Assembly: GCA_963770895.1 (NCBI GenBank)
Contig: CAVYRF010000002.1
Coordinates: 372,354-436,353 of the forward strand
Reading direction: 5' to 3'
From: an uncultured Acidobacteriota bacterium
GTDB taxonomy: Bacteria > Acidobacteriota > Thermoanaerobaculia > Multivoradales > UBA5704
Length of the DNA stretch: 64,000 bases
The first letter of the stretch is position 1. Each line of letters opens with the position of its first letter. Made by a program: the position numbers and the translations under genes. The notes beneath the pieces are model-generated. The model was not told the DNA's origin. It ran no database searches and saw nothing but the letters and a program-made list of their open reading frames with translations. Shown here piece after piece: positions 2,539 to 34,867 of this stretch.

Positions 2539-2567
2539 TTGACTTACGCCTCTTTAACGCCTTACAT
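2539..2567 (+). promoter_or_regulatory. candidate sigma70-like promoter for imuA: TTGACT-N17-TTACAT, with ATG only ~8 nt downstream (possibly leaderless)
   Basis: A lower-GC intergenic stretch at 2420..2575 contains TTGACT at 2539-2544 and TTACAT at 2562-2567. No LexA box could be identified by eye. Confidence 0.25.
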
Positions 2568-2574
2568 TCAGGCC

Positions 2575-3756
2575 ATGCCGAGCGCCTCCCAAGCCCTTGA
2601 ACGCGTGCGCGACGCCCTGGCGCGATCGTCCGCGCCGCTGCCCGCGCACGCGCCGCTGATCGCCCAGCTGCGCAGCGCCCGCGACTTCGGCCGGACGGCC
2701 GTTGAAGCGGCGGCCGAGGCGCCGGCCCCGCTTGCCACCACCGTCGCCGCCGTGGACGATCTACTGGCCGGCGGCCTGCCGCGCGGCCAGCTGGTCGAGC
2801 TGATCGGCGGGCGCTCCAGCGGCCGCTTCTCGACCGTCCTGGCCGCCCTGGCCGCCGCCACCGCGGCGGGCGAAGCGGCGGCGCTGGTCGATCTCGGCGA
2901 CGGGCTCGACCCGCAGGCCGCCATCACCCTGGGGGTGGACCTGCCGCGGCTCCTCTGGCTGCGCCCCTCCACCCTCAAGCAGGCCCTGGCCTGCGCCGAA
3001 ATCCTCATCGGCGGCGGCTTCTCCCTGGTGGCCCTCGAGCTCGGCCCTCCCCCGGTGCCCGGCGGCCGGGGGCTGGAGGCCGCCTGGCTGCGCCTGGCCC
3101 GCGCCGCCCAGGCCCACCACACCGCCCTGCTCATCGCCAGCCCCTACCGCGTCAGCGGCACCGCCGCCGCCGCCGTCCTGCAGGCTACCCGCTCCCGCGT
3201 CCTGTGGCACGGCCTCGCTCCTTGCCACCACACCCTTGCCGCGGAAACGGGTGCGCCGGCGGCAGGGATGCAATGGACGCCCCGGGACCAGGCAGCGGAC
3301 CGGGCCGCATCTCCCCTGCTTTCGGGACTGGCAGCCGCCGTGACGCTCGAAAAGCGCCGCAACCAGGCGCCCTCCACCGCCCAAACCGCCAGCCCCCTGA
3401 CGCTGTGGCTGCCCGAAGCCGCCGCCCTGCTCGATCCCCTGCCCTCGCACCGGCGCGCGGCACCGCCGGCAAGCGCCAGAGCGGCGATCGGCAAAGCCGC
3501 CAGACCCGCCGGGGTGGTCGCCGCCATGTCACCTTCGCCGGCGGGGCCGGCATCCCTGCCGGAGGAGGTGGCGGCGACACCGCCGATGCCGCTCCTGTCG
3601 CCGGCCGCGACGCGGTATCGGCGGCGGACGTCCGACCGGGTGTCGCCGCGCGCGGCGCTCGCCCAGCCGCCCGCGGCCCCGGCGGCGGCGGCCGGCGGCG
3701 ACCTTCCGGCGCCCCGCGCCGTCGCCTCGGGGTACCGGCGTGCTCGCCGGGGTTGA
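2575..3756 (+). CDS. imuA: ImuA-like protein of the imuA-imuB mutagenesis cassette (RecA/SulA fold), with a long Pro/Ala-rich C-terminal extension
   Basis: DDLLAGGLPRGQLVELIGGRSSGRFSTVLAALAAATAAGEAAALVDLGDGLDPQAAITLGVDLPRLLWLRP...LACAEILIGGGFSLVALEL. It sits immediately upstream of an ImuB-like gene, with ATG at 2575 (the tracker start is TTG 2539). About 150 residues of low-complexity tail follow. Confidence 0.6.
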   Translation: MPSASQALERVRDALARSSAPLPAHAPLIAQLRSARDFGRTAVEAAAEAPAPLATTVAAVDDLLAGGLPRGQLVELIGGRSSGRFSTVLAALAAATAAGEAAALVDLGDGLDPQAAITLGVDLPRLLWLRPSTLKQALACAEILIGGGFSLVALELGPPPVPGGRGLEAAWLRLARAAQAHHTALLIASPYRVSGTAAAAVLQATRSRVLWHGLAPCHHTLAAETGAPAAGMQWTPRDQAADRAASPLLSGLAAAVTLEKRRNQAPSTAQTASPLTLWLPEAAALLDPLPSHRRAAPPASARAAIGKAARPAGVVAAMSPSPAGPASLPEEVAATPPMPLLSPAATRYRRRTSDRVSPRAALAQPPAAPAAAAGGDLPAPRAVASGYRRARRG

Positions 3757-5566
3757 GGTTGAGGGTCGCGTCGTGGTTGCCTCCCGGCTTGCCTGCGTCG
3801 TCGTCTCGCTCTTCCCGCTGGCGGCCCGTCTGCGCAGCGAACCCGAGCTGACGCGGGAGGCGCTGGTCATCGTCGAAGGCAACGGCGGCGGCGCCGGCGT
3901 GGTCGCCGCTTCCCGTTTGGCGCGCCGCGCCGGCGTGCGGCCCGGCCTCAGCCTGACCCAGGCGCGGGCGCTCATCCCCAAGCTGGTGGCGCGGCCGCGC
4001 GACGTGGAATGCGAGCGCGCGGCCCAGGAAGCTCTGCTGGAAGCCGCCGACCGCTTCTCGCCGCGCGTCGAGGATGCCGGCGGCGGCATCGCCTACCTCG
4101 ACATCGACGGCATCGACCGCCGCTTCCGCCGCACCATCGCCGCCGCGTTGACCGCGTCCGCCGCGTCGACCGCGTCGGCGGCGCCGGCGGCGGCCGCCGA
4201 GCTGGAGCTGGGGCGCGCGCTGCTCGCCGCCACGGCGGCGGCAAGCCTGCCGGCCAAGGCCGGGATCGCCTCCAGCAAGCTGGCCGCCATGGTGGCCGCC
4301 GGCCTGGCGGACTCTCCCGGCATCGTCGCGGCGGGCCAGGAGGCGGCTTTTCTGGCGCCGCTGCCGCTCGATTGCCTGCTGCCCAGCCTGGAGCTGGTCC
4401 CCCTGCGCGGGTCCGCCGCCACCGGCCCCGAGGCCCCCGGCGGCGCCGGCATCCTGCAGATCGCGGCGACCCTGGAGCGCTGGGGGATTCGCACCATCGG
4501 CGATTTTGCCGGCCTGCCCGCGGCGCGCGTGAGCAGTCGCCTGGGGAGCCTCGGCCGTGCGCTGCATGCCACGGCCCGCGGCATCGATTCCCGTCCCCTG
4601 GTGCCCCGCCAGCCGCCGCCCGCCTTTCATGAAGGCATGGACCTGGAATGGCCGCTGGTGACGCTGGAGCCCTTTCTGTTCGTCGGCCGGCCGGCGCTCG
4701 AGCGGCTGTGCGGGCGCCTGGAGGGGCACGGACTCGCCTGTTCGCGGCTGGAGCTGGCGCTGCGCCTGGACCCGGAAGGGCACCAGCTGCGCACCATCGA
4801 CCTGCCCGCCCCGACCCGCGACGTCAAGACGCTCCTGACGCTGCTCCGCCTGGAGCTGGAAGCGCATCCGCCGGGGGCCCCGGTGGCCGGCTTCACCCTC
4901 GCCGCCCGCCCGGACCGCCCCCGCGAGGCCCAGCTGTCCCTGTACGGCCCGGCGGCGCTCTCACCGGACAAGCTGGCCGCCACCCTGGCGCGGCTGTTCG
5001 CCCTGTTGGGGCCGGACCGCATCGGCTCGCCGCGGCCGGTCGCGGGGCACCGCCCCGAGCGGCTGGCGCTGGTCGCCTACGCTCCCCCGCCGCCGCCCGA
5101 GGTGCGGCGCGACCCCAGGCGCACCACCGGCCGCGGCCTGCTGTCGATCCGGGTGGTGCGGCCGGCGCTCGCCATCGAAGTGATCGTGGAGGAGCCGCAG
5201 CAGCTCGGGGCGCCCGCACCCCAGCCGGCGCGACAACCCCAGCCGCTGCCGGCGGACGCGGCCGTGCCCGCACCCGAAGACGCGGCGGCGCCCGCGCCCG
5301 CGGCCGCGGACATGGGCACCGGCGAGCCCTGCATGCTGCCGCCCGTCGAGATCCTGCCCGTGGTCAGCGAGGACACCGCGGGGCGGCCGCGGATTGCCGG
5401 ACGGGTGAAGGTGGCCGCCGGCCCCTGGGGGCTGGAAGACGAATGGTGGACTCCCAACCCGACAGGCCGCGACTATTGGGACGTCGAGCTGGCCACAGGC
5501 GGCCTGTATCGCATCTTCCGCGACCGGGCCTCCAGCTGCTGGTACGCCGACGGGATCTACGACTGA
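3740..5566 (+). CDS. imuB: ImuB-like Y-family DNA-polymerase paralog (UmuC-fold, non-catalytic)
   Basis: The N-terminus LACVVVSLFPLAARLRSEPELTREALVIVEGNGGGAGVVAASRLARRAGVRPGLSLTQARALIPKLVARPRDVECERAAQEALLEAADRFSPRVEDAGGGIAYLDIDG is typical of ImuB. The gene overlaps the imuA 3' end. Confidence 0.7.
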   Translation: MLAGVEVEGRVVVASRLACVVVSLFPLAARLRSEPELTREALVIVEGNGGGAGVVAASRLARRAGVRPGLSLTQARALIPKLVARPRDVECERAAQEALLEAADRFSPRVEDAGGGIAYLDIDGIDRRFRRTIAAALTASAASTASAAPAAAAELELGRALLAATAAASLPAKAGIASSKLAAMVAAGLADSPGIVAAGQEAAFLAPLPLDCLLPSLELVPLRGSAATGPEAPGGAGILQIAATLERWGIRTIGDFAGLPAARVSSRLGSLGRALHATARGIDSRPLVPRQPPPAFHEGMDLEWPLVTLEPFLFVGRPALERLCGRLEGHGLACSRLELALRLDPEGHQLRTIDLPAPTRDVKTLLTLLRLELEAHPPGAPVAGFTLAARPDRPREAQLSLYGPAALSPDKLAATLARLFALLGPDRIGSPRPVAGHRPERLALVAYAPPPPPEVRRDPRRTTGRGLLSIRVVRPALAIEVIVEEPQQLGAPAPQPARQPQPLPADAAVPAPEDAAAPAPAAADMGTGEPCMLPPVEILPVVSEDTAGRPRIAGRVKVAAGPWGLEDEWWTPNPTGRDYWDVELATGGLYRIFRDRASSCWYADGIYD

Positions 5567-5595: not shown

Positions 5596-5651
5596 AAAAA
5601 CAAAACCGGCGGGCGCCGGCCTCAACTGCGAGAGAGGCCGGCGCCCGCCGA
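5596..5651 (-). terminator. rho-independent terminator-like hairpin between convergent imuB (+) and the secreted paralog (-). It may act bidirectionally.
   Basis: A perfect 15-16 bp inverted repeat CCGGCGGGCGCCGGCC (5606-5621) and GGCCGGCGCCCGCCG (5636-5650) encloses a 14-nt loop. It is preceded on the plus strand by GGGGGAAAAACAAAA, which reads as a U-run after the stem on the minus-strand transcript. Confidence 0.5.
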
Positions 5652-5674
5652 AGGGCTTACGGAGGGCTACGTGC

Positions 5675-6967
5675 TTACGGCACGAAGTGGTTGGCGGCGC
5701 AAGCGCTGTCAAGCCGGATCGCGTCGATACCGACCGCGTACTGGCCGTTCTGCGACAACGTTGCAACCACCCACGCCTGCGCCGCGGCCGGGTCGACCGG
5801 CGGCAAACCAGGCGCCGCGACCGGCTCGGTCACGTTCAGGTCGAGGTACAACCAACCGAACGAGAACGGCACCGCCAGGTTCGGACCACCGACAACCGTC
5901 CGCTGCGTTTCCGCCGGGAACGGCGACTGCGTCGTGGTGGGCGGCGGCGGCGAGATCGGGATCGTGGTCGGCGTGACCGGGTGCTCCTGCTCGTCGAAGA
6001 TCACCAGGCCTTCTTCAGCCAACGGATACCAGATCGGAGTGACCCCCGGGTTGACCGGGCAGGTGAACGCGCCCTGGGCAACCTTCGAGTCGCGCCACAC
6101 CAGCAGCGAGGTGCCACCGTTGAAGCCGCCACCGTTGAGGAAACGGGTGGCAAACGTGGTGGCCAACGGCTCACGGTTATCGACCGCGGTGAAGGCGTCG
6201 TACCGGCCGTAGAACGTGTACCGACCCGAGGTCGAGGTCGCCGGGTTGGTGGCATCCGCTTCGATGTGCACCAGGTCGCCGCCCTCGGCAAAGTTCTCGG
6301 TCGAGTTGACGATGAACCAGTCGCCCCACAGCACGTTCTGGTTGGTCACGTCGCCCGTGCCGCCGGCAGCGAAGTAGCCGGTGTCGCCGGGGAACCGCAG
6401 GGTGCAGTTGTTGACCGTGTCCATCGTGATGTAGCCACGGGCGATGTTGTCACCCAGCGCCTGGGCGGAGCAGTTGCCGCCCAGAATCGCCGACGGCAGA
6501 CCGGTCAGCGACTCCTGAAGGTGGGTGGTGTAGGCCGCCGGCAGCTGGGGCGGAGGCAGTACGTTGGTGCAGCTGGCGAAGTTGATGTCCTGCGAGAAGC
6601 TGCCCTTCGGGCTGATGGTGTCGTCCGGATCCTGCCCCGCCGAGGCGGTCTGCGGCAGGTTGCCGTTGATGATGATGTCGCGCAGGTTGACCGACTGAAC
6701 GTCATAGCCGGTCAGATAGATGTTGAAGTCGAGGACGGGCACCGACAGGTCGGTCCAGATGACGGCGTGGACCAATACCGCGGTCGCCGACGCGTTGTTC
6801 ACCGAGAACAACGTGGTCAACCCGTTCGGGTTGTTCAAATCCACCTCGAAGTAGGGCAGCAGCAGCGTCGCCGCCGGCACCGCATCGATGGTGCAGATCA
6901 CCGCCGACATTGGTGCGGCAAGAGCCAACGCTCCTACCAACGCTAGACACAAGACCACGCGACTCAT
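5675..6967 (-). CDS. secreted protein of unknown family (430 aa, signal peptide, 6 Cys); paralog 1
   Basis: MSRVVLCLALVGALALAAPMSAVICTIDAVPAATLLLPYFEVDL... . A strong RBS AAGGAGG lies 6 nt upstream of ATG 6967. The protein is ~80 % identical to the downstream paralog. Confidence 0.8.
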   Translation of the reverse strand: MSRVVLCLALVGALALAAPMSAVICTIDAVPAATLLLPYFEVDLNNPNGLTTLFSVNNASATAVLVHAVIWTDLSVPVLDFNIYLTGYDVQSVNLRDIIINGNLPQTASAGQDPDDTISPKGSFSQDINFASCTNVLPPPQLPAAYTTHLQESLTGLPSAILGGNCSAQALGDNIARGYITMDTVNNCTLRFPGDTGYFAAGGTGDVTNQNVLWGDWFIVNSTENFAEGGDLVHIEADATNPATSTSGRYTFYGRYDAFTAVDNREPLATTFATRFLNGGGFNGGTSLLVWRDSKVAQGAFTCPVNPGVTPIWYPLAEEGLVIFDEQEHPVTPTTIPISPPPPTTTQSPFPAETQRTVVGGPNLAVPFSFGWLYLDLNVTEPVAAPGLPPVDPAAAQAWVVATLSQNGQYAVGIDAIRLDSACAANHFVP

Positions 6968-7308
6968 CTAGAACCTCCTTTTTTTTTCGACCAAAAGTGG
7001 TCAGCGTCGGGGTGACGCAATCTCCTCTTCCGGTACCGGCGGCGACCATCCTGGTGGCCGCCAGCAGCCGGAGACATTCCTAGACGCCAATTGCCGGAGG
7101 CGCCGATCGCGAAGCGACCGCCGACCAGACCGGCAACAGGTGCGACTTGACCAGGGTCCGCCCTCGGACCCAAACCGCTGGTGGTACTAGACTTACGGCA
7201 ATCAGACGAATAGCGCCGGTACTATATAACTGACGCTCCGCTAATGCAAGCCCGCGCCGGCGCAAGCCGCCCGCCAGGTCCCCCCGGCGGCGGCTGCGGT
7301 GCCGGAGC

Positions 7309-8631
7309 TCAGAAGATGGCAGAACCAGGCACGGCATGATTGGCGGCACAGGCGCTGTCCAGGCGGATGGCTTCGATGCCGACGGCAAACCGGCCGCTGG
7401 TCTCGAAGAAGCCGGTCACGAAAGCCTGGGCGGCGGCAGGGTCGACCGGCGGATTGTTACCGGCGGCGGCGACCGTGGTGTTGAGGTCGAGATATAACCA
7501 ACCGAAGGCGAACGGCACGGGAAATGGTCCGGTGCCTCCGACCAGCGTGCGCTGCGCTTCCGCCGGGAAGGGGACGATGCTCTCGGTCGGCGGCTGCGGC
7601 GAAATCGGCAGCGTGGTAATCACCGCCGGATGCTCCTGCTCGTCGAAGATCACGATGCCTTCCTGTCCGAGCGGATACCAGGCCGGCCGCACGCCCAAGG
7701 TCGCCGGGCAGGTGAAGGCGCCCTGCGCCACCTTGGAATCGCGCCACACCGCGAGCGTCGAGCCGCCGGTGAAGGCGCCGCCGTTGAAGAAGCGGATGGC
7801 GAAGTTGGTCGCCAGCGGTTCGCGGTTGTCCACCGCGGTCCAGGCGTCGTAGCGGCCATAGAAGGTGTAGCGGCCGGCCGTCGACGTGGCGGGATTGGTG
7901 GCGTCGGCTTCGATATGGACCAGCGTGCCCGATTCGGCGGCAATCGACTTGTCCCGCACCCAGTCGCCCCAGAGGACGTTCTGGTTGGTGGCGTCGCCGG
8001 TGCCCCCGGCCGCGAAGTAGCCCACGTCGCCGGGGAAGCGCAGGGTGCAGTTGCTGACCGTGTCGACCGTGACGTAGCCGCGGGCGATGTTGTCGCCCAG
8101 CGCCTGGCCGGCGCAGTTGCCGCCCAGGATCGCCGAAGGCTGGCCGGTCAGCGACGCCTGCAGGTGGGTAATGTAGGTCGCCGGCAGCTGTGGCGGCGGC
8201 AGGACGCCGGTGCAGCTGGCGAAGTTGATGTCCTGCGAGAAGCTCCCCTTGGGGCTGATGGTGTCGGTCGGGTCCTGCCCCGCCGAGGCGGTCTGCGGCA
8301 GGTTGCCGTACACGATGATGTCGCGCAGGTTGATCGTCTGCACGTCGTAGCCGGTGAGGTAGACGTTGAAGTCGAGCACCGGCACCGACAGATCCGACCA
8401 GATGACGACATGCGTCAACACCGCCGTCGCCGACGCGTTGTTGATCGAAAACAGCGTCTGCGTGCCGCTGGGGTTTTGCAGGTCCACTTCAAAGTACGGC
8501 AGCAGCAGCGTCGCCGCCGGCACCGCGTCGATGGTGCAGATGATGGCGCCCGCAGGCGCCGGGGCCACCACCAGCAGGCCCGCGACGGTCAGCAGGCCCG
8601 CCACGGCGAACCAGCACCTTCCCGTCTCCAT
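7309..8631 (-). CDS. secreted protein of unknown family (440 aa, signal peptide); paralog 2
   Basis: METGRCWFAVAGLLTVAGLLVVAPAPAGAIICTIDAVPAATLLLPYFEVDLQNPSG... is colinear with paralog 1 through to ...IRLDSACAANH. The tracker ORF 7309..9564 extends 5' into a different-frame overlap with the ADH gene. The start is trimmed to ATG 8631. Confidence 0.75.
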   Translation of the reverse strand: METGRCWFAVAGLLTVAGLLVVAPAPAGAIICTIDAVPAATLLLPYFEVDLQNPSGTQTLFSINNASATAVLTHVVIWSDLSVPVLDFNVYLTGYDVQTINLRDIIVYGNLPQTASAGQDPTDTISPKGSFSQDINFASCTGVLPPPQLPATYITHLQASLTGQPSAILGGNCAGQALGDNIARGYVTVDTVSNCTLRFPGDVGYFAAGGTGDATNQNVLWGDWVRDKSIAAESGTLVHIEADATNPATSTAGRYTFYGRYDAWTAVDNREPLATNFAIRFFNGGAFTGGSTLAVWRDSKVAQGAFTCPATLGVRPAWYPLGQEGIVIFDEQEHPAVITTLPISPQPPTESIVPFPAEAQRTLVGGTGPFPVPFAFGWLYLDLNTTVAAAGNNPPVDPAAAQAFVTGFFETSGRFAVGIEAIRLDSACAANHAVPGSAIF

Positions 8632-8774
8632 CCTCAAGTCCTCCAAACCCCGCTCGATCGACGCAGCGCTCCTGGCGGGGTGAACGCACCAGAAATGACG
8701 ACAACACCGTGAGTATATGCCGGGCTCGCCCCGGCTGTCACGCGCCGGGGCGGCCACGGCGGAGGCCGTCGCCC

Positions 8775-9816: not shown

Positions 9817-11625
9817 CTATTTGCGGCGGTTGGCGGCCAGGGTGCGCTTGCGCAGGCGCACCGCCTCGGGGGTCACCTCGACCAGCTCGTCCTCGCGGAT
9901 GAACTCCAGCGCCTGCTCGAGGTTCATCAGCCGCGGCGGGATCAGGCGGATCATGTCGTCGGAGCCCGAGGCGCGCATGTTGGAGAGCTTCTTTTCCTTG
10001 GTGACGTTGACGTCCAGGTCGTTGCCGCGGGCGTGCTCGCCGATCACCATGCCCTCGTACACCTCGTCGCCCGGCGACAGGAAGAGCACGCCGCGCGGCT
10101 GCAGGTTCTCGATCGAATAGGCGGTGGCGCGCCCCTGGCGGTCGGCGACCAGGGCGCCGGTGGCGCGATGCTCGATGTCGCCCTGCCACGGCTCCCAGCC
10201 GTCGAACAGGTGGTTCATGATGCCGGTGCCGCGAGTTTCGGTCAGGAACTCGGCGCGGAAACCGATCAGGCCGCGGGACGGGACGCGAAACTCGATGCGC
10301 ACGCGGCCCGATCCGTGATTGCTCATCTTCATCATGCGGCCGCGGCGAGCGCCCATCTTCTGCGTCACCACGCCGATGAACTCTTCGGGACAATCGATCA
10401 CCAGCATCTCCATCGGCTCGTGCAGGCGCCCGTCCACCGTGCGGGTGATCGCCTGCGGCTTGCCGACCGACAGCTCGAAACCTTCCCGCCGCATCATTTC
10501 GATCAGGATCGCCAGCTGCAGCTCGCCGCGCCCCGAGACGCGGAAGGCGTCCGCCGTCTCGGTCATGTCGACGCGGATCGAAACGTTGATCAGGCGCTCG
10601 CGCTCCAGCCGTTCCTTCAGTTTGCGCGAGGTGACGTGCTTGCCCTCGCGGCCCGAAAACGGCGAGTCGTTGATCGACAGCACCATGGTGATGGTCGGCT
10701 CGTCCACCTGGATCGGCGGCAGCGGCCGGGGATTGTCGCGCTCCGACAGGGTTTCGCCGATCTCCATCTCCTCCAGGCCCGCCACCGCCACGATGTCGCC
10801 GGGACCGGCCTCGCTCACTTCGACGCGGCGCAGGCCGTCGTAGCCGTACAGCACGCTCACCTTGGCCGGCGCCGCCTGACCGTCGAGCCGGCAGAGCGCA
10901 ATCTCCTGCGCCTTGCGCAGGCGGCCGTTGAAAATGCGGCCGATGGCCAGCCGCCCCACGTAGTCGTCGTAGTCGAGGGTCGTCACCAGCATCTGCAGCG
11001 GCATGGCGGGATCGTAGGACGGCGCCGGCACCGTGCGCAGGATCTCTTCGAACAGCGGCGCCAGCGTTTCGTCCTCGCCCTGCGGCGTACGCCGGCAGGT
11101 GCCGGCGCGGGCGTTGCAATACAGCACGGGGAAATCGAGCTGCTCCTCGCCGGCTTCCAGGTCGATGAACAGATCGAAGACCTCGTTGAGCACCTCGGCG
11201 GGACGGGCGTCGGAGCGGTCGATCTTGTTGATCACGACGATCGGCGGCAGGTGCGCTTCGAGCGCCTTCTTGAGGACGAAGCGGGTCTGCGGCAGCGGCC
11301 CTTCCGACGCGTCCACCAGCAGCAGGACGCCATCCACCATCTTGAGCGTGCGCTCCACCTCGCCGCCGAAATCGGCGTGGCCCGGCGTGTCGACGATGTT
11401 GATGCGGGTGCCGTGATAGAGGATGGCGGTGTTCTTCGCCATGATCGTGATGCCCTTTTCGCGCTCCAGATCGATCGAATCCATCACCCGCTCCGCCACC
11501 GTCTGGTGCTCGCGGAAAATGCCGCTCTGCCACAACATGGCGTCCACCAAGGTGGTCTTTCCGTGATCGACGTGGGCGATGATCGCCAGGTTGCGTACGT
11601 CGTCGCGTCTCTCGATCCTCTGCAT
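9817..11625 (-). CDS. typA: translational GTPase TypA/BipA
   Basis: [20 protein letters not shown] (G1), [14 protein letters not shown] (G3), NKIDR (G4). The 602-aa length fits the BipA domain layout. Confidence 0.9.
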
Positions 11626-13254: not shown

Positions 13255-13356
13255 GAGTCCTCTGGTCGTCCGCGCGCCTGGCGCGGCTCGCGGTCCGGCC
13301 GCGGGGCCGCGGAGCCGCGCATGGATCTTGCTTCCAGCGGGAGGGCTCGTTCGCCC

Positions 13357-14844
13357 ATGACAACGCGAAACATCATCTGCTGCCTGCTCCTGTGCGCCGC
13401 CGCCGGCCTGGCGACGGCGCCTGCCCAGGCCGAGGAAACCCTGTCCTACGGCCGTTTTGGCGTGGTGACCCTGTACCACGACACACCCCACCCGCGGCAC
13501 GTGGTGCTGTTCTTTTCCGGCGACGGCGGCTGGAACCTGGGCGTGGTCGATATGGCACGTACCCTGGCGAAAATGGACGCCCTGGTCGTCGGCATCAACC
13601 TGCCGCGCTACCTGAAGGCCTTCGACGCGGCGGGCGGCAGCTGCTCCTACCCCGCCAGCGACGTCGAGCTGCTCAGCAAGTACGTCCAGAAAAAGCTCGG
13701 CTTCCCCACCTATACCCCGCCGGTCCTGGTCGGCTACTCGTCGGGCGCCACCCTGGTCTACGCCCTGCTGGTGGAGGCGCCGCCCAACACCTTCGCGGGC
13801 GCGATCAGCATGGGCTTCTGCCCCGACCTGCCGCTCAAGAAGCCGATGTGCGCCGGCCACGGCCTCACCTGGGGCCCCGGCCCCAAGGGCAAGGGCGTCA
13901 GCTTCAAGCCCACCGCCACCCTGGAGCAGCCGTGGATCGCCTTCCAGGGGACGATCGACCAGGTCTGCTCGCCCCAGGACGTCGCGGCCTACGTGCGCCA
14001 GGTGAAAAACGGCGAAGCGGTGATGCTGCCCAAGGTCGGCCACGGCTTTTCGGTGACCGCCAACTGGGAGCCGCAGTTCAAGGCGGCGTTCCTCAAGCTG
14101 ACGGCGGCCGCTGCCACCCCGGCTGCGCCGCCCCCACCACCGGCCGCACCGGCGGCACCTCCCGCGGCCGCCGCGGGCGCCAGGCCGGGCCTGCCCGCGG
14201 CCGCGCCGCCGCCGGTGGGCGACCTGCCGCTGATCGAGATGCCCGCCAAGACGCCGGCCGGCAACATGCTGGCGATCATCGTCTCGGGTGACGGCGGCTG
14301 GGCCGGCATCGACCGCGAAGTGGGCACCGACCTGAGCGCCAAGGGCATACCGGTCGTGGGCCTCAACTCGCTGCAGTATTTCTGGAGCGCCAAAAACCCC
14401 GACGTCGCCGCCGCCGACCTGCAGCGCATCGCGCGCCACTACCTGGCGGTATGGGGCCGCGAGCAGCTGCTGCTGGTCGGCTACTCGCTCGGCGCCGACG
14501 TGCTGCCCTTCATGGTGGACCGGCTGCCGGCAGACCTGCAGAACCGCATCCGCCTGATCGCGCTGCTCGGGCCGAGCCTGCGCACCAGCTTCGAGTTCCA
14601 CGTCGGCGACTGGCTGGGCGCCGGCGACGGCGGCGACCTGCCGGTGCTGCCCGAAGTCGGCAAGCTGCGCGGCCGGCCGCTGCTCTGCCTCTACGGCCAG
14701 GACGAAACCGACAGCCTGTGCACCCGCATCGGCGCCCTGGGCAAGGCCGTCGCCTTCCAGGGCTCCCATCACTTCAACGGCGCCTATTCGTCGCTGGCCG
14801 AGCGCATCCTGCACGAAGCGCAAACCGCGGGCGGCGCCAAATGA
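13357..14844 (+). CDS. AcvB/VirJ family protein (N-terminal hydrolase-like domain plus C-terminal VirJ domain), with a signal peptide
   Basis: MTTRNIICCLLLCAAAGLATAPAQA is the signal peptide. It is followed by VVLFFSGDGGW..., then IIVSGDGGWAGIDREVG...VGYSLGADVLPF...GSHHF, the VirJ/AcvB signature. Confidence 0.7.
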   Translation: MTTRNIICCLLLCAAAGLATAPAQAEETLSYGRFGVVTLYHDTPHPRHVVLFFSGDGGWNLGVVDMARTLAKMDALVVGINLPRYLKAFDAAGGSCSYPASDVELLSKYVQKKLGFPTYTPPVLVGYSSGATLVYALLVEAPPNTFAGAISMGFCPDLPLKKPMCAGHGLTWGPGPKGKGVSFKPTATLEQPWIAFQGTIDQVCSPQDVAAYVRQVKNGEAVMLPKVGHGFSVTANWEPQFKAAFLKLTAAAATPAAPPPPPAAPAAPPAAAAGARPGLPAAAPPPVGDLPLIEMPAKTPAGNMLAIIVSGDGGWAGIDREVGTDLSAKGIPVVGLNSLQYFWSAKNPDVAAADLQRIARHYLAVWGREQLLLVGYSLGADVLPFMVDRLPADLQNRIRLIALLGPSLRTSFEFHVGDWLGAGDGGDLPVLPEVGKLRGRPLLCLYGQDETDSLCTRIGALGKAVAFQGSHHFNGAYSSLAERILHEAQTAGGAK

Positions 14845-14855
14845 GGAGGACCAGG

Positions 14856-17800
14856 ATGGGGTCGACCCGACGGAGCTTCGGCGGCACCTTCACCGCGGCG
14901 CTCGTGGCGAGCGCGGCGCTGGCAGCGGTTGCGGCGGGAGTAGCCGGCGCGGCGACTCCGGGGACGCCGGCGGCCCCGGCGGTGGCGGCAGCCCCGACGC
15001 CCAAGGCGGCGCACGCCGCGCCGGCCCCGCCGCCCGCCGCGGCCGTCGAGCATCAGACCTACGGCCGCTTCGGCCAGGTTTCGATCTACCGCCACGGCAG
15101 CCAGCCGGCAGGCATCGTGGTGCTGGTGTCGGACGACGAAGGCTGGGACGGCCGCGCCGACGAGATGGCGCGCGACCTCGAATCGGTCAACACCCTGGTC
15201 ATCGGCCTCGACCTGCCCTACTACGAGCGCCGCTCCGAACGCCTCACCCAGGACTGCTCCTACCCCGCCGGCGACTTCGAGATGCTGTCGAAGCTGGTGC
15301 AAAAGAAGCTCGACCTGCCGACCTATACGCCCCCCATCGTCGCCGGCATCGGCAGCGGCGCCACCCTCGCCTATGGCGCCCTGGCCCAGGCGCCCAGCGG
15401 CACCTTCGCCGGCGCCATCAGCCTGGGCTTCTGCCCGCGGCTCGAAGAGGCGCACCCGCTCTGCACCGGCCGCGGCCTGGTCAGCAAGGCCCTGCCGGGA
15501 GGCGAATCCTTCCGCCTCGAACCGATCGCCAGCGTCGATCAGCCCTGGCTGCTGGTGCCGCCCCTGCCGGCGCCAGGCGAAACCGCGCAATGCGGCGACC
15601 CCACCACTCCCGAAGCCTTCGCCGCCAAGGTGAAGGGCGCCGTGGTGATCGCGCCGCCCAAGAAGAACGGCAAGAAGGAAGCGGCGGCCGACCTGCGCGC
15701 CGGCTCGGGCCTCAAGCAGGCCTTCCTGCGGGCGGTGAACACCACCGACCTGTCGGTCCCGCCGGCGACGCCGGTGCGCCGGAAGGTGGCCGACCTCCCC
15801 ATCCTGGAGCTGCCGGTGCCGGGCACCACCGGCGACACCCTGGCGGTCGTCGTCTCGGGCGACGGCGGCTGGACGGGGCTCGATCGCGACGTCGCCAGCG
15901 AGCTCGCCACCCAGGGGTTTCCGGTCGTCGGCATCAACTCGCTGCAGTACTTCTGGACGCCGCGCACCCCCGAAAGCGCCGCCGCCGACCTGGCCCGCAT
16001 CCTGCGCGCCTACATGCCGGCCTGGAACCGCAAGGACTTCATGCTGGTCGGCTACTCGCTGGGCGCCGAAGTCCTGCCCTTCATGGCCGCGCGGCTGCCC
16101 GCCGACCTGCAATCCAAGCTCAAGCTGGTGGCGATGATCGGCCCCACCCGCACCACCAGCTTCAAGTTCGAGCTCAGCGAATGGCTGGGCCATGGCGGCG
16201 GCGAAAATCGCCCCGTCCTGCCGGAAGTCATCAAGCTCAAAGGCAAGGCCGCGGTCGCCTGCATCTTCGGCGCCTCCGAGAAGGCCACCAGCCTCTGCCC
16301 CATCCTCGGCAACGCCGGCACGCCCATCGCCCTCAAGGGCGCCCACTACCTGGGCAACAACCCGCAGGCGGTCACCTACCAGATCGTGCACGCCATGCCT
16401 GCCGCCGCGCCGCCACCCCCGCCGCCGGCCAAGCCCGACGAAGGCACGACCAAAAAGCCCCAGCACCCGGCCGCGCCGCCGCCGGGAAGCGCGCCGGCGC
16501 CGGCCACCGGCAACGGCTCAGGCTCGGGTTCAGGCTCGGGCTCGCAAGCTCCGACGGTGACCATCGGGAGCGCGCCGGCGAACCGCATCGCCCTGCTGGC
16601 CGGCTTCGGCGCCGGGTTGGGCGCCGGTTTCGCCAGCCCCGGCCCCGCCCCCGGCGGCAAGGCCGTGCCGGCGGCGGCGCCATCGCCCGGCCCCGCCCCG
16701 GGTGGCGCCGAGGAGACCACGCAATACGGCCGCTTCGGCACCCTCCACCTGGTGCGCCAGCACCCGCACCCCGGCCAGGTCGTGCTGCTCTTCTCCGGCG
16801 AGCAGGGCTGGGACGCCACCGCCGCGGCCATGGCGCAGGGCTTTGCGGCGCGCGACTTCCTGGCCGTGGGCATCGACACCGCCCACTACCTGGGAAAGGT
16901 CGCGGCGCAGCACGACAGCTGCGCCTACACCGCGGGCAGCCTGGAAAACCTCAGCAAGGTGGTGCAGAAGCGGCTCGCCTTCCCGCGCTACGTCCATCCC
17001 GTCGTGGCCGGCTTCGGCGGCGGCGCCGCGCTCGCCTACGGCGCGCTCGCCCAGGCGCCGCCCAATACCTTCCAGGGCGGCATCGGCCTGGATTTCTGCC
17101 CCCTGCTGCCGGCCGGGCAGACCCTCTGTCCAGGCCACGGCCTGGCCGAGCGCAAGACGGCCAAGGGGGCGTTCGAACTGCTCCCCGGAAAGGGCCTGTT
17201 GCAGCCATGGATCGCCCTGCAGCCGGCGGCCACCAATCCGTCCTGCCCCGCCGCCACCGGCACCGCCATCGCGGCGCTGGCCACCGCGGCGCCCGGAGGC
17301 GCGGCGCTCACCCTGGCCGCGGCGGACCGCACCCTCAGCCAGCCGGCGCAGTGGCTAGGCGACCTGCGCCAGGCGATCGACCGCCTGCTGACGCGCGCCG
17401 CCCTGCCCACCGCCACCGCCGGCGTGCACGAGGTCGCAGGCTCGCCCGCTCTCCCCGACCTGCCGGTCATCGAGATGACCGGCGACACCGCCGCCGGCAA
17501 GGGTGCCGATCCCGCCGGCGCAGGCAGCGGCAACGCAACGGGCGGCGGCGCAAGCGGCGGCGGCGCGTCCGCCAAGCCGCTGGTCGTGGTGCTCTCCGGC
17601 GACGGCGGCTGGACCGGCGTCGATCGCGAAGTCGGCAAGATCCTGGCAGGCCGCGACGGCATGCCCGTCGTCGGCCTCGATTCGCTCAGCTACTTCTGGA
17701 ACGGCCGCACCCCCGCCGCCGCGGCGGCGGACCTGGCGCGCGTCCTGCGCCACTACCTGGCGGCCTGGAAGCGCGACCAGGTGGTGCTCGTCGGCTACTC

Positions 17801-18164
17801 GCTGGGCGCCGACGTGCTCCCCTTCCTGACCAGCCGCCTGCCCGCCGACCTGCTCGCCAAGGTGCGCCTGGTCGCCCTGCTGGGTCCCAGCCACACCACG
17901 CCCTTTGACATCCGGGTCAAGGACGACAAAGCCACCGAGCTGCCCGTCCTGCCCGAGATCGCCAAGCTGAGCGGCCGGCCCCTGCTCTGCCTGGGCGGCG
18001 AAGGCGAAGCCGACAGCCTCTGCCCAGAAATCGCCCAGCGCGGCCTGGGCCAGGCCGTCGAGCTGCGCGGCTCGCACGCCTTCGACGGCGACTACGCCAC
18101 CCTCGCCTCCCACATCGCCCGCGCCGTCCACGCCCCACCCCACGCCGGCCGCACCGGGGCCTGA
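14856..18164 (+). CDS. fused double AcvB/VirJ protein of 1102 aa (two complete N-domain plus VirJ-domain units in tandem)
   Basis: An RBS GAGGAGG lies 6 nt before ATG 14856. The motif pair (V/L)(V/L)SDDEGW or FSGEQGW, then VVSGDGGWTG...VGYSLGA(E/D)VLPF...G(A/S)H(Y/A), occurs twice. The units are separated by P/A/G-rich linkers (GSGSGSGS). Confidence 0.7.
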   Translation: MGSTRRSFGGTFTAALVASAALAAVAAGVAGAATPGTPAAPAVAAAPTPKAAHAAPAPPPAAAVEHQTYGRFGQVSIYRHGSQPAGIVVLVSDDEGWDGRADEMARDLESVNTLVIGLDLPYYERRSERLTQDCSYPAGDFEMLSKLVQKKLDLPTYTPPIVAGIGSGATLAYGALAQAPSGTFAGAISLGFCPRLEEAHPLCTGRGLVSKALPGGESFRLEPIASVDQPWLLVPPLPAPGETAQCGDPTTPEAFAAKVKGAVVIAPPKKNGKKEAAADLRAGSGLKQAFLRAVNTTDLSVPPATPVRRKVADLPILELPVPGTTGDTLAVVVSGDGGWTGLDRDVASELATQGFPVVGINSLQYFWTPRTPESAAADLARILRAYMPAWNRKDFMLVGYSLGAEVLPFMAARLPADLQSKLKLVAMIGPTRTTSFKFELSEWLGHGGGENRPVLPEVIKLKGKAAVACIFGASEKATSLCPILGNAGTPIALKGAHYLGNNPQAVTYQIVHAMPAAAPPPPPPAKPDEGTTKKPQHPAAPPPGSAPAPATGNGSGSGSGSGSQAPTVTIGSAPANRIALLAGFGAGLGAGFASPGPAPGGKAVPAAAPSPGPAPGGAEETTQYGRFGTLHLVRQHPHPGQVVLLFSGEQGWDATAAAMAQGFAARDFLAVGIDTAHYLGKVAAQHDSCAYTAGSLENLSKVVQKRLAFPRYVHPVVAGFGGGAALAYGALAQAPPNTFQGGIGLDFCPLLPAGQTLCPGHGLAERKTAKGAFELLPGKGLLQPWIALQPAATNPSCPAATGTAIAALATAAPGGAALTLAAADRTLSQPAQWLGDLRQAIDRLLTRAALPTATAGVHEVAGSPALPDLPVIEMTGDTAAGKGADPAGAGSGNATGGGASGGGASAKPLVVVLSGDGGWTGVDREVGKILAGRDGMPVVGLDSLSYFWNGRTPAAAAADLARVLRHYLAAWKRDQVVLVGYSLGADVLPFLTSRLPADLLAKVRLVALLGPSHTTPFDIRVKDDKATELPVLPEIAKLSGRPLLCLGGEGEADSLCPEIAQRGLGQAVELRGSHAFDGDYATLASHIARAVHAPPHAGRTGA

Positions 18165-29583: not shown

Positions 29584-29589
29584 GGCGCT

Positions 29590-30621
29590 CTACTTCCAGA
29601 GGAACGAAGGATAACCGTCGAGGTCGCCGCGCAATGTTCGCGCGAGGAGAGCGGCTTGCAGGTGCGGCAGCAGGCCGAGAGTCGTCTTTTCCCCCAGGAA
29701 GGGATGCACGATCTCTTCGTTCTTTCGCTTCTGATATGCCACGAGAACGGCCTTGCGGGTGTCGCTGTCCATGGCGACCCCTCCCGATTCTCCCTGGCGG
29801 AAGCCGGCGGGACGGACCTGGTTGAGATTGACCAGCGATAGTGCCAGACGGTCCGCCAGATAGGCGCGCATCTCTTCCATGAGATCGAGCGCAAGGCCTG
29901 GCCGGCCCGGCCTGTCGCGATGGAGAAACCCGACAGCAGGATCGAGCCCAACGGCTTCGAGCGCGGCCGTGAAGTCGTGCCGCAGCAGTGTGTAGATGAA
30001 CGAGAGAAGAGCGTTCATGTTATCGAGAGGAGGTCGCCGGCTCCGGTCGTGGAGAAAGAACGAGTCCTTCTGCTGGACCAAGAGAACGTCGAAGGCCTCG
30101 AAATAGGCGCGAGCCGCACTTCCCTCAAGACCACGCAGACCGTCTACCGTCAGGTCGGGCGTGAGAGATCGCAGGTGCTGAGCCAGCCTGCTTGCGGCGC
30201 TCCGCAGAGCGTCAGCACCTGGATGCTCCGGCCGGTCGCGGAGAGCTCGCAGGAGAACGGTGCGGCTGTTGGCTAGCTTTGCAGCAAGGATGGCGCGGAC
30301 GATGGCAGCGGAGCCTACCGGATCGTCGGCGCGGCGATACTGTTCGCGCCGCAGCAGCACGTTACCGGACACGGGACCCTGGAGACGAGCGAGGAATCTG
30401 CCGCTCTCGGTGAGGAACGAGACGGTGACGCCGCGCTCACCGCAGAGCCCAAGAAGATATGGACTGAAACCGATCTGCCCGAAGCAGACGATGCCGCCCA
30501 GAGTGTGGATCGGCACCCGCATGCGAGTCTCCTGGTCGACCCGCACCGCGACCGCCTCGCCGTCCTTCGCCAGGTAAGCCCCGGCCGTGGTCACAAAGAG
30601 TGTGTTCTGATGTCTCCTCAC
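29590..30621 (-). CDS. cas1: CRISPR-associated integrase Cas1 (type I-C), GTG start at 30621
   Basis: VRRHQNTLFVTTAGAYLAKDGEAVAVRVDQ...GNVLLRREQY... . The GTG start overlaps the cas4 stop in a GTGA. The tracker ORF 29590..30750 extends 5' into cas4. Confidence 0.85.
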   Translation of the reverse strand: MRRHQNTLFVTTAGAYLAKDGEAVAVRVDQETRMRVPIHTLGGIVCFGQIGFSPYLLGLCGERGVTVSFLTESGRFLARLQGPVSGNVLLRREQYRRADDPVGSAAIVRAILAAKLANSRTVLLRALRDRPEHPGADALRSAASRLAQHLRSLTPDLTVDGLRGLEGSAARAYFEAFDVLLVQQKDSFFLHDRSRRPPLDNMNALLSFIYTLLRHDFTAALEAVGLDPAVGFLHRDRPGRPGLALDLMEEMRAYLADRLALSLVNLNQVRPAGFRQGESGGVAMDSDTRKAVLVAYQKRKNEEIVHPFLGEKTTLGLLPHLQAALLARTLRGDLDGYPSFLWK

Positions 30622-31328
30622 GGAGCGACTCCTTCGTCTTGCCCCTCTGGAGATGCCGCGATCTGCCGGAGGAAGCGTGCGAGGTAGCGCTGGGCGGAGC
30701 TGGCCGGTGCCCCCGGAAGGCAGACGTCGAGCAACGAACAGCGATCGCACTTCGGCTCGCGGACAGGCATGGGAGTGATACCGCGCCCTACAAGCTCGTG
30801 AAAACGTGCCGCCGCGGCTTCGGTGAGCTGGCGAAGACCGTGGTCGAAGAGCACGTCCATTCGTCGGCGCGGCTGACCGTAGAACAGGGCGCCCGCTGGA
30901 ACCTCAATCGCCAGCATCTCCTCCAAACAGATTCCTTGGGCGCAGAGCTGAACCTCGTCGGCTCGGTGGGACTTGGGTCGGCCGCGCTTGTACTCGATCG
31001 GGAATGGTCGCCAGAGTCCCTGCAGACCGGGGAGCGGGGCCGCGGCTTGGACTCCCCCTTCGCCGGGACCGAACCGCCGCAGTTCCACCACGTCGGCCTT
31101 GCCCGAAAGCCCGAGACGCGCGCTGCGGAGAGGGAGGCTGCGAACGACCCGGAGATCGCCACGGGACTCGTCCGCTCCCCGGTCCGCGCGCTCGTGGAGG
31201 TGCGTTCCTTCCACCGTCAGGGCGTTGTCCACCCAAATCTGTTCGAGGTGGATCAGGGCAGCCTGCCGCTCGCAGAAGAGCAGGTGCTGCAGGCCGGAGA
31301 GCGGGAGCAAATCGTCTTCGGTGAACAC
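30618..31328 (-). CDS. cas4: Cas4 (RecB-like nuclease with a C-terminal Fe-S Cys cluster)
   Basis: LSGLQHLLFCERQAALIHLEQ carries the N-terminal Cys. The C-terminal ...CDRCSLLDVC has three Cys. The gene sits between cas7 and cas1. Confidence 0.85.
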   Translation of the reverse strand: MFTEDDLLPLSGLQHLLFCERQAALIHLEQIWVDNALTVEGTHLHERADRGADESRGDLRVVRSLPLRSARLGLSGKADVVELRRFGPGEGGVQAAAPLPGLQGLWRPFPIEYKRGRPKSHRADEVQLCAQGICLEEMLAIEVPAGALFYGQPRRRMDVLFDHGLRQLTEAAAARFHELVGRGITPMPVREPKCDRCSLLDVCLPGAPASSAQRYLARFLRQIAASPEGQDEGVAP

Positions 31329-31332
31329 GTGC

Positions 31333-32283
31333 TTACCGCAACTCGAGCAGTGTCACTCCCACCGGCACACGGTCGCGATGGATGGTCACCGCGTAGTCGG
31401 CAAATGCGCGGGGCGCTTCGATTTCGGGCTTTTTCTTTACCTCAACGAGCTCGAACAGCTCGTGAGCCGGAGCGCAGCCAAGCATGGCCTGCCGGCGCCG
31501 CTGCGCAGTATCGGTGTCCGTGCCGTCGTGGCGGAAGACGACGAGCGGCCGGTGAACGCTCATCAGCCCCTTGCTCGCCGAGCGGTCGTGCTCATACATG
31601 TTGAGCAGGGCCTCCCAAAGCAGGGCTAGGTCGGCGTCGGAGAACCCGGTTTCCTGGGCCAGGTGCGCGCTGATGAAGCCGCGGCCCACGAACAGGCCGT
31701 AGGGGATGAGTGCCTTGCGGCCCATCGTGCGGAGCTTGTCCTCGGGCTGCTCGGCCTCCCAGCGGGCGATGTCCGCCGAAGAGCTCGCGCCCTTGACGTT
31801 CTCGGCCACCGCCATGCGAGTGATCGAAAGGTCCAGCGGCAGGACCGGGTCCACCGAACGGGCAAAGGGGATCTGCACCGGTCCGCGCACCTGGCCGGCG
31901 TTGGCGCCGGTGCTCATCACCGCGCCGAAAGCTCGCACGTCGAAAAAGTTCTGGCACATCCAATGCTTCGCCGCATCGACCCTGGCCTTGGAGGAGCCCT
32001 TCTTGTCCGCGGCGAGACCGCCTGTTTCCTCGTGAGCGCGGGCGATCGGGCGGTTGAGGTTCGTCGCGTGTTCGATGAAGATGGCATCGGGCATCTGATT
32101 TCCCCGCGCGATCTGCACATAGTTACGGATGCGACGCTTGATCGCCACGTCGGACACCAGGCCGATCATCGTCTCCGGGTCGAGACGCGGGGCGTTGCCG
32201 GCGTCGGGATCGCCGTTGGGGTTACCGTTGACGCAGTCGAAAAGAAAGAGGAATTCGTAGCGATTTGCGATCGGCTCAGACAT
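31333..32283 (-). CDS. cas7: Cas7 (Csd2), type I-C
   Basis: [45 protein letters not shown] is the Csd2 signature. Confidence 0.9.
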
Positions 32284-34045
32284 GCTCGGTCTCCTGGGAA
32301 TTGGCGTCCGGGGTCTCGTCGGCAGGCGCGGCCGCGGCCTTGGGATGCGAACGGTCGGCGGCGATCTGCTGGTAGTAGCCGAGCGCGAAGACGGTCTGCC
32401 GCTCCAGGCTCAGTGTCGTCGGGATTGCCTGCTCGATGCGTCCGAAGGTGTCGGCGATCCGCCCCTCGTGCCAGCGGGCAAGGCCGCGTTCGAGCTTGTC
32501 GAGGTGAAACTGAGAGGTACGCACGAGCTTCCCGAGAACCAGCGCCGGCGTGGTGCTCGCCGCGGCGTAGTAGCGCTGGACAACTCCGGCTCCGACGTCC
32601 CCCAGGGCGCGGTATTGCAGCGTGGCAAGCATCGCGATCAGCCGCCCGCAGTGATAGGCGGGATCGGGATGGTCCTCATTGAGATAGGGTTTCATCGCGG
32701 GATCTCCTTCGCGGATGAGGAAGGCCTTGAGCAGGCCTACACGGGCATGGTTGAGCGGTTGATCGGTGACGATGTCGATCTTGAGCCGCGACAGAGTCCG
32801 GGCCATAGCCTGCCGCGGAATGCGATCCTGCCGCACGGCGACGTGCCACATCGTGGCCTGGAGCGACGGCGGGAGGTCGTCCAGATCTCGCACCAGGGCG
32901 CCGAGCACAGCGAGGAGCCTTGGCGGTGGGGCCAGGCCATTTCCGTCGCGCCGGGAGATAGAAAGGTCCGAGAACCAGTGATCAATGCTGCGCACCAGTT
33001 CCTCGAACTGCCCTTCGATCCAATCGCGCACCATCACCCGCCCGGAGGCACCGGACAGGGTCAGAATGAAGTAGCGGTTGTCGAGGAGGTCAGGACGCGC
33101 GCCGCTTTGCAGAGCCCTCAACAGCTCCCGAGCCCGCTGCTGCGCGCCGGCCTCAACCGTGCCAGCATCGTCGAGGAATGCCAGCGGATCCTCTTCGCGG
33201 GGCACGCGGTTCTTGAACCAGTGCACAACCTTGATGCCCACAAGGCGCTGGCTCTCTTCTTTGAGCAGGTAGTTGAGCGACGCCCGGTACTCGGCGGCGA
33301 CCTCCTCGGAAACCGGCGCGTTGGCGGCCTGCGAGAGCCCGTAGGAGCAGAAGGACTCCTGCTTGAAGGCGGCGACGACGTCACCCATGGCTAGGCCACC
33401 GACGTCCGCGAGGCCGGCGATCTTCGGGTGGGTGGGCGCGGGCTTTACGAGGTCGCCACTGGCCAGGCAGCGGACCAGTTCAGCGGCGTCTCCCTCGCCG
33501 GCCTTACGGGGCGGCGCCAGGCTGCGGCGGAACCGGCGCCACCAGTCGTGCCAAACCGTCGAATCGACGAGGTACGGCGGCGAAGCGCCCAGGACGGAGA
33601 ACGTCACCTTGTCGGTCGGCTTGGCCTTGCGTGCCTCAAGCTGGGAGCGGATCTCCGATAGAACGCCTGCGTCCTCAAGAGTCTCCGCGATGCTGGCGAG
33701 GACGGGAAGGGTCTTTGCCGCCTGCCGCAGAAGGTCGGTGAAGTAGGCGTGTTTGGCGAGGAGCTTGGCATCCGGCTCGCCGTCCGTGAGAAGAGTGACG
33801 ACGTCGGCGGAGTCAGAGAGGAAGTGACGGCAGCCCGGCCCGCCGCGCTTGATCTCCGGCTGGGAAAGCTCCGGACACTTGCGGAAGGTGACTCCCGGAC
33901 TCTTCGGGTCCTGGGCGAGAGGGAGAACTTGAAGGAACCGGCCTTCCTGGCTGCACACCAGGCCCCAGCGGATCACCTTGGGGGCGAACCCTGGCTCGGT
34001 CACCAGGTCGTGGCTGCGGGCGTAGCTCACCAGTGCCCCGAGCAT
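32276..34045 (-). CDS. cas8c: Cas8c (Csd1), type I-C large subunit, ~589 aa
   Basis: [30 protein letters not shown] is a Cas8c-type N-terminus. ATG 34045-34043 overlaps the cas5 stop in TGATG. The tracker ORF is 5'-extended to 34303. Confidence 0.8.
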
Positions 34046-34770: not shown

Positions 34771-34867
34771 GACGGCCTCCTTTCGCTGGCTACCTCGCTA
34801 CTAAATACCAACGCGACGAAAATGTTAACGGGGGCGCACGCGTCAGCTGCGGCCCGTGGCCGTGGTC

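Follow-up and report, generated by a model that had tools for sequence, protein, structure and literature searches.

The ASRAH superfamily was defined by De Souza, Iyer and Aravind, with sugar or small-molecule binding predicted in a cleft lined by strand 2 (PMC2739507). Its ASRT/TM1070 family (DUF1362/PF07100; structures 1nc7 and 2ii7), with proteins of ~115 amino acids, is marked by an Asn closing strand 2, a Trp opening strand 1, and an SHEshChhN signature; other ASRAH families substitute the ligand residues, and secreted versions of the domain occur as dyads or tetrads (PMC2739507). Phage tail fibers and tailspikes, such as T5 pb1 (PMC4690869) and the endosialidases, offer a second point of comparison, as they carry a C-terminal PF13884 domain, a trimerizing, self-cleaving chaperone (PMC4690869, PMC3742443), and the part upstream of it forms a trimeric glycan-binding or glycan-cleaving tip. 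Here we analyzed two neighboring genes, pA and pB, in a 64,000-nucleotide stretch (the window) of contig CAVYRF010000002.1 from an uncultured Acidobacteriota bacterium of the class Thermoanaerobaculia. Both encode secreted members of a family that has no description in the curated resources searched; its one connection to a solved structure is a fold-level resemblance of its core to the ASRT proteins. Our tentative reading, held at somewhat less than even chances, is that pA and pB are secreted or surface-located, non-catalytic glycan-binding (lectin-like) modules.

An earlier note on this DNA had described a tandem pair of ~80 %-identical secreted proteins, and both minus-strand open reading frames (ORFs) were confirmed as real at the coordinates it gave. 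The two genes and their signal peptides, in window coordinates, are as follows.

5675..6967, minus strand: pA, family member of 430 amino acids (ORF and translation, AlphaFold2 model, composition)
7309..8631, minus strand: pB, paralogue of 440 amino acids, 78% identical to pA, with a PGSAIF end
6902..6967, minus strand: signal peptide of pA, residues 1-22, MSRVVLCLALVGALALAAPMSA followed by VIC (from the sequence; cleavage placed by the A-x-A rule, no predictor)
8545..8631, minus strand: signal peptide of pB, residues 1-29, METGRCWFAVAGLLTVAGLLVVAPAPAGA followed by IIC (from the sequence; putative cleavage site)

pB starts at an ATG inside a longer frame that runs from stop to stop, and the 78% identity between the proteins extends over 414 residues (BLASTP). 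The ICTIDAVPAATLLLPYFEVDL block matches exactly between them, IRLDSACAANH lies near the C-terminus of both, and the extra PGSAIF end is found in pB only; the signal peptides, invariant block, six cysteines, and C-terminal features reported earlier were all recovered. Both mature proteins have a mass of ~43.2 kDa and six Cys, with a pI of 4.1 for pA and 4.4 for pB, and contain only two to three Lys (two in pA). N-x-S/T sequons at residues 58, 187, and 378 of pA and the equivalent positions of pB (NAS, NCT, and NVT/NTT) are conserved in close homologues; together with the scarcity of Lys, they may be structural or hint at glycosylation or protease resistance.

Searches with pA and pB against Pfam and NCBIfam (to E ≤ 10), PHROGs, and PADLOC gave no match, and PDB sequences searched with a single query or a 64-sequence profile gave only spurious WW-domain matches (E > 0.3), which bears out the earlier designation as an unknown family. 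The family is nevertheless large. From 8,000 scored candidates, more than 5,600 clusters at 90% identity lay above thresholds in a single-query search and more than 7,300 in a profile search, and an exhaustive search yielded 1,899 clusters at 50% identity with E ≤ 0.001. Most of the members come from Thermoanaerobaculia. Where members were named in their sources, they were called "hypothetical protein" or took their names from fused domains, and a literature search on the family motif and on Thermoanaerobaculia proteomics found nothing. When one genome per species was scanned, at least 578 matches were obtained, the best 80 of which were all from Thermoanaerobaculia/Acidobacteriota metagenome-assembled genomes, mostly from soil and usually with several loci per genome. 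Two-domain versions were found in assemblies labeled Deltaproteobacteria/Myxococcota and a single-domain version in Holophagales. The source genome itself, a contig of 5.83 Mb, has at least four copies, namely pA, pB, P0004 (83% identical to pA), and P0273. Conservation is very high: in comparisons of many species, identity stays at 65-80%, and Asp, Glu, Arg, Trp, and Tyr are invariant at many positions. No relatives were present in IMG/VR and INPHARED (2.9 million viral contigs and 50,697 phage genomes); a viral or prophage origin was rejected on this ground, on the lack of a PHROG match, and on the flanking BipA, alcohol dehydrogenase, and ImuAB genes. The family has thousands of members, in several copies per genome, is nameless in curated libraries, and has a physical tie to a conserved polysaccharide-export cluster. 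A ligand or activity found for one of them would give an annotation to thousands of entries now labeled "hypothetical protein". Such a finding could also show by what means Thermoanaerobaculia and related Acidobacteriota, abundant and nearly uncultured soil bacteria with a barely described cell surface, construct or decorate the envelope or matrix.

The N-termini of pA and pB consist of a positive n-region, a hydrophobic core, and A-x-A, followed by (V/I)-I-C, and a hydrophobic signal-like N-terminus was seen in 84 of the 85 family genes examined. The way in which cysteines were jointly present or absent across 60-64 homologues supported the pairs C25-C423, C166-C303, and C133-C188. Both C25 and C423 were present in 29-30 homologues and both absent in 27-29, with few exceptions (one of 64, and two of 60 that were gapped at C423); C166 and C303 were likewise lost jointly, and C133-C188 was assigned as the third pair because these are the two cysteines left. 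The pattern supports three predicted disulfides, one of them clamping the N- to the C-terminus, and the earlier description of the proteins as secreted with likely three disulfides agrees with both results. A lipoprotein reading of C25 was rejected, since no L-[AS]-[GAS]-C lipobox is present and A-V-I or A-I-I precedes the Cys, with a bulky residue at -1. Moreover, about half of the diverse homologues lack C25 and have lost it together with C423, which points to a disulfide partner and not a lipidation site.

A first AlphaFold2 model, built from 38 close homologues, was mediocre, with a predicted local distance difference test (pLDDT) score of 65. The second model, built from 60 sequences that included distant two-domain proteins, reached a pLDDT of 84.3 and a predicted template modeling (TM) score of 0.87 and was almost entirely β-structure. 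It contains a predicted eight-stranded β-sandwich that could be superposed on TM1070/ASRT, the fold by which membership of the ASRT/ASRAH superfamily (PF07100) is judged. A conserved Asn closes the second predicted strand (TTLFSVNNA), as it does in ASRAH domains, whereas no Trp occurs in strand 1 (ATLLLPYFEVD) and the His/Cys signature is missing. Compared with the ~115 residues of ASRT, the family domain has ~400, apparently with an insertion of ~80-100 residues in the sandwich and a C-terminal part of ~200 residues that matches nothing known. It further differs from ASRT in its three disulfides and in its taxonomic range (Thermoanaerobaculia, other Acidobacteriota, and some Myxococcota/Deltaproteobacteria). 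A Foldseek search of the PDB gave no match at E ≤ 0.001, and alignments with arrestin, a rhamnosidase, and XepA were dismissed at TM scores below 0.2. An internal domain duplication was also rejected, as hhalign of the N-terminal against the C-terminal half gave a probability below 2%. Neither by sequence nor by fold was there a match to a glycoside hydrolase, a polysaccharide lyase, or a recognized carbohydrate-binding module. In comparison with carbohydrate-binding modules and the lectin heads of surface adhesins, the family belongs to no recognized Pfam carbohydrate-binding module family and is far larger.

The module, which spans ~395 amino acids and is bounded by the conserved N-terminal strand and the last Cys, stands alone, as in pA and pB, or forms dyads of two family domains (~765-880 amino acids). 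Giant proteins carry it at one terminus or the other, in combination with PKD, Big_5, Big_9, cadherin-like, Calx-beta, DUF11, or CARDB repeats or with P-domain, plastocyanin-like, or Exo_endo_phos domains. In close homologues 73-78% identical to pA, the module is fused directly to a Peptidase_S74/PF13884 domain (residues ~436-500 in P0025, P0043, and P0055) and a coiled coil, and the fusion begins at a ...PGE-x-x-S-S-R-R-F-K motif. The P-G of the PGSAIF tail of pB corresponds to the start of this conserved linker, which in the longer homologues leads to the chaperone domain. A Pfam scan did not find PF13884 in pA or pB, and the possibility that pB had lost a chaperone domain downstream was rejected, since tblastn with chaperone-domain C-termini detected no remnant 3' of the gene. 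The likeness to tail fibers and tailspikes consists in the position of the module directly before PF13884 in some homologues. Unlike tail fibers, pA and pB lack the chaperone domain, have signal peptides and no viral relatives, and lie in syntenic chromosomal contexts that are not prophages. As a separate observation, a pair of chaperone-fused family genes lies in tandem at another locus (L005, 8131-11680; 581 and 582 amino acids, 94% identical), and the long, tail-fiber-like form therefore duplicates in tandem too.

The surroundings of the family genes were surveyed at 79 loci with gene calls based on G+C content at the third codon position (GC3). The tandem arrangement recurs in related genomes, with arrays of two to four copies at 35 of the 79 loci, and two contexts stood out. 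That of the window (context A) runs from BipA through, in many cases, an OmpW-like barrel and one to four tandem family genes to ImuB and ImuA, which are encoded on the other strand. In the window, it is delimited by the following genes, which serve as synteny anchors and not as functional parts.

9817..11625, minus strand: BipA/TypA GTPase (Pfam)
3740..5566, plus strand: ImuB-like Y-family polymerase (Pfam), the opposite anchor
2539-3756, beside the ImuB-like gene: ImuA (Pfam)

Synteny on the BipA side was seen in 27 loci, and an ImuB homologue adjoins a family gene in 22. The small OmpW-like outer-membrane β-barrel (~185 amino acids; Pfam OMP_b-brl/OmpW) was present in 19 loci, in every case next to a family gene; at the BipA-ImuB locus it lies directly upstream of the arrays and co-oriented with them (L034, 9257-9805, and 18 other loci). 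The window has a zinc alcohol dehydrogenase in its place. Identities within arrays ranged from 67% to 96%, a sign of ongoing birth, death, and conversion. Within the four-copy array of another genome (L001, 6563-8053), a 496-residue polytopic membrane protein without a Pfam or NCBIfam match was observed; its N-terminal ...WSYDEYYHLG... loop is, as we take it, reminiscent of GT-C glycosyltransferases.

Context B was found at ~23 of the 79 loci, where a single family copy lies between an FG-GAP repeat protein and a PKD-repeat protein of ~1,600 amino acids (examples: L024, 7030-21223; L082, 6542-21162). The gene order is a Wzm-type ABC-2 permease, the FG-GAP protein, the family gene, the PKD protein, in some cases an arylsulfotransferase-like protein, and a Wzt-type ABC ATPase with a Wzt_C domain, beyond which come a radical-SAM/SPASM protein (sometimes) and GT2 glycosyltransferases. 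In NCBIfam, the best similarities point to exporters of teichoic acid, galactan, and capsule, none of them reaching the curated cut-off. Judged by its gene content, context B is a predicted ABC-transporter-dependent surface-polysaccharide cluster with three embedded secreted proteins. It is unusual for a glycan exporter to have secreted proteins encoded between its permease and its ATPase, and this arrangement is uncharacterized as a unit.

The two contexts are linked within the source genome by the history of pA. When pA was compared with the family gene in the distant Wzm/Wzt cluster of a related strain, a sharply bounded tract was delimited.

5609..6899, minus strand: gene-conversion tract, covering the mature-domain codons and ~65 nt beyond the stop (blastn, 60-nt identity profile)

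The nucleotide identity within this tract, which takes in most of the terminator-like hairpin of pA, is 95.4%; outside it, the signal-peptide codons and the two flanking regions are at background level. Correspondingly, residues 22-430 of pA are 97.8% identical to P0273, which is encoded at another locus of the same genome and whose signal peptide, MKKTALSLALMGLLALGGQAVA, is unrelated to that of pA. The signal peptide of P0272, the 99%-identical orthologue of P0273 in the related strain, is likewise unrelated to that of pA; P0272 sits in the Wzm/Wzt context. The signal peptide of pA is of the "local" type and resembles those of the copies at the BipA-ImuB locus of another genome (L001). Since the mature region matches the gene of the distant cluster while the signal peptide matches the local copies, pA is a recombinant with a local 5' end and an imported mature domain. 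The conversion is older than the split of the two strains. Three other genomes showed the same pattern, with dispersed copies 95-100% identical in the mature domain and 68-78% identical in the first 40 residues, so that homogenized mature domains with divergent signal peptides were seen in four genomes altogether. The dominant dynamic is the within-genome homogenization of the mature domains of dispersed paralogues, the opposite of diversification, and pA clearly illustrates how non-allelic gene conversion can homogenize a mature domain and leave the signal peptide untouched.

The earlier note had read the pair as a recent tandem duplication suggestive of a diversifying function, and neither part of this reading was supported. 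Between pA and pB (Nei-Gojobori), the synonymous divergence (dS) is 0.70 and the nonsynonymous divergence (dN) 0.185, giving a dN/dS of 0.26 with no 60-codon window above 0.38. Closer relatives of each copy exist in other assemblies (98%, 96%, and 92% identical for pA; 96.6%, 88%, and 82% for pB, including its orthologues P0274 at 96.6% and P0078 at 88%), and the related strain, from a JGI metagenome, retains the identical order of BipA, alcohol dehydrogenase, pB, and pA at 97.1% nucleotide identity over 5.9 kb. The dS value and the closer relatives elsewhere show that the duplication is not recent; pA and pB are old paralogues, each with its own orthologues. Over 42 phylogenetically disjoint close pairs taken from 105 full-length family genes, the ratio of nonsynonymous to synonymous differences (pN/pS) was 0.34, and the 15-codon windows peaked at 0.61, in a loop rich in Pro and Thr, with the signal peptide close behind at 0.60. 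Selection was purifying throughout, with no sign of diversifying selection at this resolution. The dS between pA and pB is ~0.28 in codons ~91-210 compared with ~1 elsewhere (~1.0-1.6 in the C-terminal half), and this central stretch may be an older gene-conversion tract or reflect codon-level constraint.

Taken together, the evidence converges on an extracytoplasmic, disulfide-stabilized module at the cell surface or in the matrix that is probably connected to surface polysaccharide. We propose that pA and pB would be exported by the Sec pathway via a type I signal peptide and would fold outside the cytoplasm into a compact, acidic, β-rich domain of ~43 kDa with three disulfides, one joining the termini. 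Its core would be a TM1070/ASRT-like (ASRAH) β-sandwich with large family-specific elaborations, and the domain, whether located in the periplasm, at the surface, or in the medium, would dock onto a cell-surface or matrix polysaccharide. The likeliest target would be the polymer exported by the Wzm/Wzt cluster, where one orthologue resides in most genomes. Avidity could arise from the presence of several copies, from internal dyads, from attachment to long Ig-like stalks, or, in certain homologues, from chaperone-driven trimerization. A glycan-binding role is favored because of the ASRAH-like core, the adhesin-like stalks and dyads, and the tail-fiber-type trimerization fusions; because the paralogue that donated the mature domain of pA sits in the Wzm/Wzt context; and because within-genome homogenization is expected if all copies fit one genome-specific partner. 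Among the roles that the earlier note had suggested, adhesion or binding fits best.

Several points weigh against a lectin-like role. PF07100 did not match the family even at E ≤ 10, and the 64-sequence profile run against all PDB sequences did not retrieve 1nc7 or 2ii7. About 300 of the ~400 residues are without a structural match, and the modeled ASRAH-like core might be no more than a scaffold; that ASRAH domains bind sugars is itself predicted (PMC2739507). The strong conservation and the many invariant positions with Asp, Glu, Arg, Trp, or Tyr are just as compatible with an enzyme. In the window, the locus is flanked by unrelated housekeeping genes and the link to Wzm/Wzt runs through a paralogue, and the contexts of the two-domain relatives in other phyla, which share no common theme, are uninformative.

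The main rival explanation, because conservation is so strong and so many charged and aromatic residues are invariant, is that pA and pB act outside the cell as enzymes of a new catalytic fold, such as polysaccharide depolymerases or modifying enzymes whose substrate is the Wzm/Wzt polymer or environmental glycans. The invariant or near-invariant positions include E41, D89, R177, D183, Y198, N211, Y253, D263, R265, E266, W291, R292, D325, and E328, and a length of 400 residues exceeds that of typical lectin modules. Endosialidase-type chaperone fusions are known in tailspike depolymerases too, and the link to the glycan cluster serves an enzyme as well as it serves a binding module. We consider an enzyme fairly unlikely. 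A more far-reaching reading is, in our view, doubtful. It would make the family a new extracytoplasmic fold class on an ASRAH-like core that defines an unrecognized Thermoanaerobaculia surface system, acting as a partner (anchor, lectin, or processing enzyme) of the Wzm/Wzt polymer together with the FG-GAP and giant PKD proteins, its copies within one genome kept identical by gene conversion to match the glycan of that genome.

S-layer genes lie beside wzm/wzt glycan clusters in some Firmicutes, and pA and pB could by analogy be structural surface subunits, either a self-assembling, S-layer-like coat or a glycoprotein glycosylated or anchored by the neighboring glycan pathway. The acidic, Lys-poor mature protein, the strong Shine-Dalgarno sequence of pA, the conserved N-x-S/T sequons and Thr/Pro-rich loops, the trimerizing chaperone fusions, and the polytopic membrane protein inside one array are in line with this, as are the several copies per genome, with mature parts homogenized as for co-assembling subunits. 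S-layer proteins, however, tend to diverge rapidly, in contrast to the strong conservation of this family; Pfam detected no SLH or other known anchoring domain, and the domain is also one module of giant multidomain proteins. We consider a structural role improbable. Secreted toxins, bacteriocins, or other antagonistic effectors that diversify under conflict would also be secreted, multi-copy, and arranged in tandem arrays, and some homologues do carry tail-fiber-like C-terminal domains. Nevertheless, purifying selection without a variable hot spot (pN/pS 0.34, windows ≤ 0.61), copies that are homogenized and not diversified, syntenic housekeeping flanks, and the lack of a PADLOC, PHROG, or phage relative all speak against this, and the locus survey found no conserved small, immunity-like gene beside the family genes. 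The toxin role raised in the earlier note thus found no support, and we regard it as very improbable.

Several local signals accompany the genes.

6974..6978, minus strand: ribosome-binding site of pA, GGAGG within AAAAAAGGAGG, 6 nt 5' of the ATG (read from the sequence)
5601..5624, minus strand: terminator-like hairpin and T-run 3' of pA, mostly within the conversion tract (consensus scan, pattern match only)
6968..7308, minus strand: pB-pA spacer of 341 nt, without a family or chaperone-domain remnant (tblastn) and without an Rfam match
8712..8741, minus strand: sigma-70-like promoter match 5' of pB, GTGACA, 18-nt spacer, TATACT (consensus scan; weak evidence)

The sigma-70-like scan gave one site compared with 0.4 expected, and Rfam detected no structured RNA anywhere in the window, the spacer included. 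The G+C content of the family genes is 0.65 compared with 0.74 in the flanks. Horizontal transfer was rejected as the cause, since GC3 is 0.88-0.90, as in the neighboring genes; the dip is attributable to amino-acid composition acting at codon position 2.

Beside the family genes, the pair of ImuA-like (RecA fold) and ImuB-like (IMS) genes (2539-5566) has no DnaE2 gene directly downstream, and the family genes are found there instead; in more than 20 other genomes, family arrays likewise have this pair beside them. Beyond BipA (13321-18164) lie two successive genes for VirJ-domain α/β-hydrolases of 507 and ~1,107 amino acids, and the L001 locus has a VirJ protein on the same side. The lower-G+C stretch of the window is due to a type I-C CRISPR-Cas locus (27006-43300), which is flanked by two large arrays, the first with at least 32 repeats of GTTTCAATCCACGCCCCCGCGCAGGGGGCGAC (27006 to ~29100) and the second with ~86 repeats of GTTTCAATCCACGCCCCCGTGCGGGGGGCGAC (37483 to ~43300), degenerate at the 37.5-kb end. 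Its cas genes are as follows.

29590-30750, minus strand: Cas1
31333-32283, minus strand: Cas7
32276-34303, minus strand: Csd1/Cas8c
34868-37159, minus strand: Cas3

A cyanophycin synthetase gene (43601-46528, minus strand) follows, near a gene for a Mur-ligase-like protein (47666-49531, plus strand).

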